Assembly (NCBI GenBank): GCA_965249555.1
Contig: OZ252243.1
Location: forward strand, 64,001-128,000
Reading direction: 5' to 3'
Length of the DNA: 64,000 nt
DNA from: Nitrosopumilus sp.
Lineage (GTDB): Archaea; Thermoproteota; Nitrososphaeria; Nitrososphaerales; Nitrosopumilaceae
Made by a program: the position numbers and the translations under genes. The notes under the pieces were generated by a model. The model was not told the origin of the DNA, searched no databases, and was given only the letters and a program-made list of their open reading frames with translations. Shown one piece after another: positions 10,955 through 15,785 of the stretch (its first letter is position 1; the number at the start of each line of letters is the position of its first letter).

Positions 10955-15785
<4,831 letters not shown>

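Follow-up and report, generated by a model that had tools for sequence, protein, structure and literature searches.

A run of four CGN codons that probably ends a dual-coded stretch of a repeat-switched Type ISP gene in Nitrosopumilus

In the 64,000-nucleotide (nt) stretch of a Nitrosopumilus sp. genome analysed here (contig OZ252243.1, positions 64,001 to 128,000; hereafter the window), a long open reading frame (ORF) at 10955-15133 passes through four consecutive CGN arginine codons and then closes, in the reading GGT CGC CGG CGG CGA GAA TAT CCT TGA. The gene, which encodes a putative Type ISP restriction-modification enzyme, occurs twice in the window, and its C-terminal part lies beyond the stop, one base out of frame. 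The question raised by this locus is what the run does. The initial annotation proposed that it is a programmed +1 frameshift site or a second, mutational switch that activates the enzyme. Its description of the run, at both positions and shortly before the TGA, agreed with the sequence.

15110-15121, plus strand: CGC CGG CGG CGA in what is called below the module-2 frame, copy 1.
15131-15133, plus strand: TGA closing the module-2 frame of copy 1, three codons past the run.
59372-59383, plus strand: the same run in copy 2; the TGA of that frame is at 59393-59395.

The run is exceptional in this genome. Among 824 ORFs of at least 250 amino acids (aa; 401,001 codons), CGN codons stood in pairs 61 times, in a run of three once and in a run of four only here. 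CGG is the rarest Arg codon (0.65 per 1000 codons, 1.9% of Arg codons), CGC and CGA being used 1.14 and 4.0 times per 1000. The GC-rich patch that had been pointed out was also real, since only 90 of the 2,230,424 16-mers of this genome (34.4% G+C) contain at least 14 G+C. The mini-hairpin was predicted as well, enclosed in a longer stem at 15100-15132 (-15.1 kcal/mol, z -3.2, 0 of 200 shuffles as stable); the local hairpin was retained in the nearest relatives only, and the downstream region 15122-15220 folded no better than shuffles (z +0.4). An Rfam search of 14700-15500 gave two sub-threshold chance matches and nothing else. The run is indeed identical in the two copies; this identity carries little weight, because the copies agree at 95% of positions over 14971-15785 and show no difference at all through the 80 nt (15080-15159) around the run. 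The relative L013, in which a 33-nt identical stretch (15092-15124) lies within a region of just 79.5% identity, appears more telling.

We consider it likely, from sequence comparison, that a dual-coded stretch of a repeat-switched (phase-variable) Type ISP gene has its downstream end at this run. In a second frame, called frame Y here, the same letters read (G)TC GCC GGC GGC GA(G), that is V-A-G-G-E; read in the module-2 frame, GTC GCC GGC GGC GAG gives the four CGN codons, at a conserved one-base offset.

First, the gene was classified. The two copies, at 10955-15785 (copy 1) and 55204-60047 (copy 2), are the only copies of this gene in the genome (2.23 Mb, single contig), and they are 96% identical over 3.3 kb and 88% identical over the final 1.5 kb. 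Pfam matches followed one another in the order Mrr_cat_2 (3e-29), ResIII (1.4e-22), Helicase_C (3.8e-9), ISP_coupler (1.3e-20), N6_Mtase (1.3e-6) or Eco57I (1.1e-5), and Type_ISP_C in two parts (1.7e-43 for profile positions 1-163 and 1.3e-45 for 159-340). This is the Type ISP order of nuclease, superfamily 2 (SF2) helicase, coupler, gamma-class N6-adenine methylase and target recognition domain (TRD). The nearest solved structures were LlaBIII, LlaGI and the Type IIL enzyme in 7LO5; the TRD aligned to LlaBIII at E 8e-56, and its C-terminal half (C-half) to LlaGI at E 5e-27. These similarities place the window genes among the Type ISP restriction-modification enzymes, so that ATP-driven translocation, cleavage when two enzymes collide and hemimethylation of an asymmetric site would be expected of them. 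The TRD is split, with profile positions 1-163 ending at 14937 and positions 159-340 beginning at about 15102 in another frame. The natural relatives of the window genes are single chains; as assembled the window genes are not, their ORFs ending at 15133 and 59334, before the C-half.

10955-14937, plus strand: copy 1 up to the repeat, with Mrr-like nuclease, SF2 helicase, coupler, N6-adenine methylase and first TRD half (Pfam; alignment to LlaBIII 1037-1377).
14804-14914, plus strand: module 1 core, closing copy 1 before the repeat, NIVICIPDKG...PDLHIIEQSQCFPL.
15120-15785, plus strand: C-half of copy 1, with conserved helices and "guide" subdomain; it spans 221 codons plus stop and is offset by +1 from module 2 (Pfam Type_ISP_C profile 159-340; alignments to LlaGI, LlaBIII and 7LO5).
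55204-59183, plus strand: copy 2 up to the repeat; its TRD part diverges from copy 1 more than the remainder does.
59382-60047, plus strand: C-half of copy 2.

Between the two TRD halves, 140 nt upstream of the Arg run, lies a (GA)n tract, an in-frame tandem repeat in both copies whose unit is not divisible by three. The tract and the segment behind it are as follows (TRF, Tandem Repeats Finder; dN/dS, ratio of nonsynonymous to synonymous substitution rates).

14938-14970, plus strand: (GA)16.5 tract of copy 1, the frame selector (TRF); as assembled, module 1 enters the module-2 frame.
14971-15133, plus strand: dual-coded segment of copy 1 (three-frame translation, frame openness, dN/dS); the module-2 frame (codons from 14969) reads SKRIENLVIIIPHKYTGEPSVIITDTTPDLEAIHHGQCFPFYYYKEGRRRREYP-stop, and frame Y (codons from 14973) reads the linker ANASKISSSSYHTNTQESHPSLSQILPPTSKPSITDNASHSTTTRRVAGG, continuing into ENILD.
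59184-59232, plus strand: (GA)24.5 tract of copy 2; in the assembly it leads module 1 into the third frame, with a stop at 59332-59334.
59233-59395, plus strand: dual-coded segment of copy 2, module 2 with the Loop VI variant PDLQVNFNGQ.

When the tract was edited in silico, adding one unit to copy 1 or removing two gave an ORF of 1610 or 1608 aa, respectively, and removing one unit from copy 2 or adding two gave 1613 or 1615 aa; all remaining unit changes from -3 to +3 in either copy gave 1374-1409 aa. Copy 1 as assembled encodes the truncated module-2-frame product of 1392 aa. The two copies are eight units apart and in different frames, and the tracts of the relatives P0001 and P0121 are shorter. 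The (GA)n tract is thus a switch that is sufficient alone to set the frame. Hence the full-length enzyme needs no ribosomal slip, because a change of tract length, or a natural frame-Y allele, suffices. The run had been proposed to activate the module-2 enzyme; for a full-length enzyme as such the tract suffices, and natural full-length alleles read the letters of the run as V-A-G-G-E. Nor is there a repeat at the run, so the proposed mutational second switch found no basis.

We propose the following mechanism. The final segment of the TRD core (a beta-hairpin plus Loop VI) is present twice in the gene, once on each side of the (GA)n tract, and slippage of the tract by one unit would shift the ribosome among three frames. 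In frame Y, module 1 would be used, the module-2 DNA would be read as a hydrophilic linker ending ...RRVAGG, and the C-half would follow, giving an enzyme of about 1610 aa. In the module-2 frame, module 2 would be translated and the first codons of the C-half would be read one base off, as Arg-Arg-Arg-Arg-Glu-Tyr-Pro-stop. The third frame would lead to an early stop. Our inference is that cells do switch in this way and that specificity differs between the two modules.

The dual-coded stretch, about 150 nt long and readable in two frames, was then examined. Its frame-Y translation is a stop-free Ser/Thr/Pro/His-rich linker that contains TTTRRVAGGENILD and ends in RRVAGG, followed by ENILDSTL.... 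Its module-2 frame encodes a second version of the module 1 segment, roughly 50% identical to it, which runs into KEG-RRRR-EYP-stop. The module aligned to LlaBIII 1332-1377, and the His of PDLH in module 1 occupies the position of LlaBIII N1360; this places the duplicated module at the beta-hairpin and at Loop VI in the TRD core. In PMC4872093, LlaBIII N1360 and LlaGI H1368 are described as reading target position +3, the guide subdomain as not reading the target, and conserved helices as packing on the TRD beta-sheet. At the corresponding position, module 2 of copy 1 has Glu and that of copy 2 has Gln. The two module 2 versions differ in seven residues, five of them within Loop VI, where the recurrent variants E[A/V]IHHG and QVNFNG are swapped; each variant is also found in single-module enzymes. 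An AlphaFold2 model of P0127, a natural in-frame two-module protein (18-row alignment; mean pLDDT, the predicted local distance difference test score, 65), was silent on which module the fold uses, because both modules scored low (module 1 about 19-38, module 2 about 36-51); moreover, MAFFT had put all homologs onto module 2 in the P0127 alignment, which biases this result.

Relatives were searched in the whole genus (151 genomes, 16 with a C-half match) and in a 401-genome sample of the family (33 with a match), and at least 28 two-module loci were found in 19 genomes, the window genome (G000) included, from five genera of one family. They fall into two types. In the window type (W-type: copy 1, copy 2, L013 and L047, and in the protein database P0121-P0126 and P0128, ending ...EG-R-[R/L]-R-R-...), the C-half lies at +1 relative to module 2. 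In the L-type (at least 23 loci), module 2 ends ...FPM[K/R]V..-TGA and the C-half lies at -1.

Both frames are kept by selection. Frame Y was free of stops across module 2 in 23 of 23 two-module loci (L038, L042, L068, L069 and L072 were left out of this count) and the third frame in one of 23, whereas among single-module relatives either alternative frame was open in 0 of 20 (1-8 stops). In nine between-lineage W-type pairs, dN/dS was 0.07-0.22 in the module-2 frame as against 0.50-1.33 in frame Y. Among 11 L-type loci, the pair differences by module-2 codon position were 443/298/994. These comparisons show that module 2 is under purifying selection in its own frame and, both frames being kept, indicate that it is a working recognition segment rather than debris.

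The same data bear on plain decay, by which the extra base would be an ordinary frameshift in a dying duplicated gene and the Arg run would be meaningless. Restriction genes are often inactivated, and both copies are interrupted as assembled. However, the offset and an intact module 2 persist across lineages with a synonymous divergence (dS) of about 1 or more, the difference in frame-Y openness between two-module and single-module genes is complete, a single GA unit restores a 1610-aa ORF, and natural full-length alleles exist. Plain decay is therefore close to refuted, and we regard it as highly improbable.

The alleles of relatives bear further on the proposed repeat switch. Full-length linker-frame alleles accounted for 8 of the 60 best matches inspected, namely P0001, P0002, P0010 and P0024 and, in the L-type, P0041, P0043, P0055 and P0058; P0001 (1604 aa) is 85% identical to the linker-containing query and covers 99% of it. 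The 28 two-module genome loci comprised 10 in frame Y, 9 in the module-2 frame, 5 in the third frame, 2 in frame throughout and 2 unassigned. At the position of the GA tract, the relatives carry repeats of GA, ACAG, poly-G, AC, CCAG, and 7-, 8- and 11-nt units, suggesting that the site is selected for hypermutability. In one assembly, L067 (G311:C34) and L072 (G311:C42) showed 0 mismatches in a 1751-column alignment and differed only by one 8-nt unit. This unit brings the gene out of an off frame into the full-length one; the pair represents either paralogs or population variants of a single locus. As between copies 1 and 2, repeat number and frame change together. L042 (G066:C203) is a natural in-frame two-module gene, reading KEGVFGGHGSENITD, with a degenerate GA tract. 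At its positions 5040-5082, an (AC)~21 tract at the boundary of methylase and TRD interrupts the ORF, which suggests that in this gene the switch has moved to another loop.

Separately, L052 (G181:C1:1-3411) is a three-module allele, as seen about 420 nt before the NIT anchor at 1254; its two successive alternative modules are each terminated by a stop, and in the C-half frame they are read through as one long linker. G245:C1 holds a single-module and a two-module ISP gene (L074 and L048) whose C-halves are nearly identical, with a tree path length of 0.07.

On the C-half tree, the labels single, W and L require nine changes. C-halves are thus exchanged by recombination between paralogs, and for this reason their tree cannot date the architecture. 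We also considered whether module 2 is kept fresh by conversion from single-module paralogs. This was rejected, as the type-specific tails (FPM[K/R]V...stop and FPF.YY.EGR[R/L]RR) never occur in single-module genes, and G000 has no single-module paralog.

The rival that the initial annotation favoured is programmed frameshifting. Ribosomes in the module-2 frame would pause on the rare CGG after AAGGAGG and shift by +1 within 15110-15121, giving a 1609-aa enzyme. This product, joining module 2 to the C-half, would be a second active form and would probably have another specificity. The arithmetic of that proposal was right: skipping one base joins ...YYYKEGRRR to ENILDSTL... (1385 + 3 + 221 = 1609 aa). 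Its "usual RRENI junction" was loosely worded, as the family has basic residues followed by [E/D/Q]-N-I (for example, KEGEKQDNITD and EDGTRRDNITD); the spacing of FP + 11 residues + NI does match exactly, as in P0007 and P0031. Module 2 and the C-half were once in one frame and are now one base apart. The offset is old: it was kept in every W-type allele seen (copy 1, copy 2, L013, L047, P0121-P0126 and P0128), and it follows ...EG-R-[R/L]-R-R in 13 W-type alleles with a dS between lineages of about 0.85-1.6. The only in-frame exception is L042/P0127, which shows that an in-frame two-module gene exists in nature. A loss of the extra base in homologs, which had been named as a ground for abandoning the frameshift, was thus not seen. 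Furthermore, in lineages that keep the offset, module 2 is under purifying selection, and its Loop VI occurs in discrete variants.

Loss of the CGN codons had been named as another such ground, and here the result went the other way. Seven W-type relatives have Arg-Leu-Arg-Arg (L047 and P0122-P0126 directly, and P0010 as deduced from its other frame). In L047, the only one of them with DNA, the junction reads GGAGGG-T-CGT-CTT-CGG, so that Leu is encoded by CTT and followed by CGG. The four-CGN form is therefore a feature of one branch rather than a conserved signal. A search for the junction pattern in 401 genomes of the order returned G000 (twice), G162 and three unrelated genes (G513, G521 and G709), a search in 10 genomes of the genus of G311 returned G311 only, and a metagenome scan for W-type DNA gave at least four distant loci among the matches listed. 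The W-type DNA comparisons rest on five sequences.

The letters just before the run are a better candidate for a signal.

15101-15109, plus strand: AAGGAGGGT, which encodes Lys-Glu-Gly in module 2 and is complementary to the 3' end of 16S rRNA (...GGATCACCTCCT); its synonymous sites are invariant among the five W-type DNAs.

Its Shine-Dalgarno (SD)-like core AAGGAGG (15101-15107) matches the 16S end, which is canonical in this genome (...CCTCCT), and GGAGG is six-fold enriched before starts. Just before the run, TAC TAC xxG GAG GGT showed no synonymous variation in 4 of 4 testable codons, compared with 3 of 15 elsewhere in module 2 (five sequences only). In the bacterial RF2 (release factor 2) site, an SD-like element stands a few bases, namely 3 nt, before CUU and a slowly read codon. 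L047, with CUU-CGG, resembles this arrangement: the Leu tRNA on CUU could re-pair on UUC, and six more relatives share Arg-Leu-Arg-Arg. The window, in contrast, has CGG for CUU. In the +1 frame CGC CGG CGG becomes GCC, GGC, GGC, so neither CGC nor CGG re-pairs, and the better slippery site of L047 was lost on the window's branch. Between the AAGGAGG core and the candidate P-site codons there are 2 or 5 nt, compared with the 3 nt of RF2. Slow decoding of rare Arg codons, as first proposed, is plausible for an A-site CGG; it is not for the codon to be skipped, CGA, which is not rare, and no P-site codon re-pairs in +1. The module-2 stop is not fixed among W-type alleles, lying about 7 to 57 codons past Glu-Gly, and the retention of the hairpin in the closest relatives only and the small number of W-type DNA sequences also count against a frameshift. 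Cellular +1 frameshifting has never been demonstrated in Archaea according to a 2021 review (PMC8211752), which weighs in the same direction.

The tRNA complement was also consulted. ARAGORN found the Arg anticodons TCG, TCT and GCG only; the absence of CCG, which would slow CGG, is weak evidence, because the same scan also misses tRNA-Trp. The scan made 9-10 tRNA-Phe(GAA) calls in the 2.2-Mb genome, one of them in the window at 23428-23502. This excess reflects either many false calls or a repeated tRNA-like element.

How else could module 2 reach the C-half? Each of 22 L-type loci, which together have 19 distinct contexts, carries an ATG of the C-half frame at the module-2 TGA; the two codons overlap in 21 loci and abut in one, and an SD-like pentamer lies at most 19 nt upstream in 20 of the 22. 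The window genome itself contains 74 ATGA overlaps between long frames. This arrangement points to termination-reinitiation, by which the module-2 state of L-type genes would yield a two-chain enzyme. Since L-type genes supply the C-half by the ATG at the stop, the module-2 state seems to need it. In W-type copy 1, no ATG, GTG or TTG occurs in the C-half frame between the tract and a TTG at 15216, which lies inside conserved sequence. Consequently, the C-half cannot start separately in the window gene, and with no start codon at the junction reinitiation is unavailable there. For the W-type we see no way from module 2 to the C-half other than a +1 shift at the run or close to it, which is an unproven candidate. 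Taken together, we regard the programmed frameshift as possible but doubtful.

A further rival requires no unproven mechanism. The truncated 1392-aa protein may have its own use, as a regulator or partial enzyme, in which case module 2 would be conserved without recoding. The module-2 state is common (9 of 28 genome loci), and the lost guide subdomain does not read the target according to PMC4872093. By the same paper, however, conserved helices packed against the TRD beta-sheet would be lost as well. In addition, L-type genes would make the C-half in the module-2 state through the ATG at the stop, mostly with an SD-like element, and a truncated product gives no reason for the canonical junction spacing or the conserved Arg-[Arg/Leu]-Arg before ENI to persist. 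We consider this explanation unlikely.

Several points weigh against the repeat-switched, dual-coded gene that we prefer. Neither copy yields a full-length enzyme as assembled, and the counts of states in relatives (frame Y 10, module-2 9, third 5) are indistinguishable from equal use and do not reveal which states are used. Switching in this organism is unobserved: the four sequencing-run entries are unitig contigs that break at 14915-14981. These contigs have no indel rows at the Arg run, which is uninformative on heterogeneity or 1-bp deletions because contigs drop rare variants. The loci were taken from 30 matches per search plus 11 further regions, so that not all matches were inspected. 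Moreover, the invariant synonymous sites before the run hint at a nucleotide-level signal that a passive junction does not explain. Finally, this explanation leaves the W-type module 2, though under purifying selection, without a C-half, so that either recoding or a function of the truncated protein is missing from it.

These points can be tentatively combined. The tract would pick the Loop VI cassette, giving two active enzymes with different targets and an off state, and the module-2 form would be completed by recoding, namely reinitiation in the L-type and a +1 frameshift at GGAGGG-N4-C[U/G][U/G]-CGG-CGA in the W-type. We put this forward only as a possibility. As a whole, the interpretation in the initial annotation was partly supported.

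Three further features of the window genes were noted. A perfect 13-nt tandem repeat precedes each of them.

10794-10936, plus strand: TTCCAATTCCTTC x11, copy 1, ending 18 nt before the ATG (TRF).
55082-55186, plus strand: TTCCAATTCCTTC x8.1, copy 2, ending 18 nt before the ATG.

This promoter or leader repeat, whose copy number is not the same in the two genes, forms a second variable tract. Six consecutive G, found five codons into each ISP ORF (ATG GGT GCC ACA GGG GGG CAT; 10968-10973 and 55217-55222), might provide an additional but weaker site of slippage. Within the TRD, about 200 nt (approximately 14145-14348 and 58395-58590) in the jaw and recognition-loop region gave no BLAST alignment between the copies, and the two enzymes probably differ in target, given this stretch.

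The window genes can be compared with several known systems. LlaGI and LlaBIII (PDB 5FFJ and 4XQK) have the same families and domain order; the window genes differ from them in being archaeal, in having the last TRD-core segment doubled around a repeat tract, and in a frame that is interrupted as assembled. Termination-reinitiation coupling is represented by the overlapping or abutting stop and ATG of the L-type sisters, not in the window genes. These sisters would be a clean example from nature of an enzyme that can be produced in either one chain or two. The +1 frameshift of RF2 (prfB) shares with the W-type junction a conserved one-base offset, a purine-rich element complementary to 16S rRNA and a slow codon, and in L047 also the CUU. 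The window differs in having CGG for CUU, another SD spacing and no stop at the shift site. The window junction is a concrete, testable candidate for +1 frameshifting in an archaeon; if a shift does occur there, Archaea would have their first demonstrated case of cellular programmed +1 frameshifting.

Host-adapted bacteria are well known to turn restriction-modification genes on and off through repeats; their phasevarions carry coding-region repeats in Type III mod genes, Type I hsdM and hsdS, and a Type IIG gene of Campylobacter jejuni. In our literature search, no description of the present architecture or of repeat-switched restriction genes in Archaea was found; in an archaeal review (PMC11033074), "phase-variable" occurs only in reference to a bacterial enzyme. 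What appears to be new is an archaeal repeat-gated Type ISP gene in which the DNA behind the repeat is open in two frames and would encode an alternative Loop VI, an architecture that occurs in abundant marine ammonia-oxidising nitrifiers. If the frames do give different targets, the specificity of defence and the methylome would be varied in a new way, by the choice of frame and not by recombination. As in the phasevarions, a non-triplet repeat lies inside the ORF, and its allele-variable length decides whether the full enzyme is encoded. The difference is that the repeat of the window genes lies inside the TRD, between alternative recognition segments, and that the DNA downstream of it is readable in two frames; unlike in bacterial phase-variable genes, two of the three frame states look productive rather than one.

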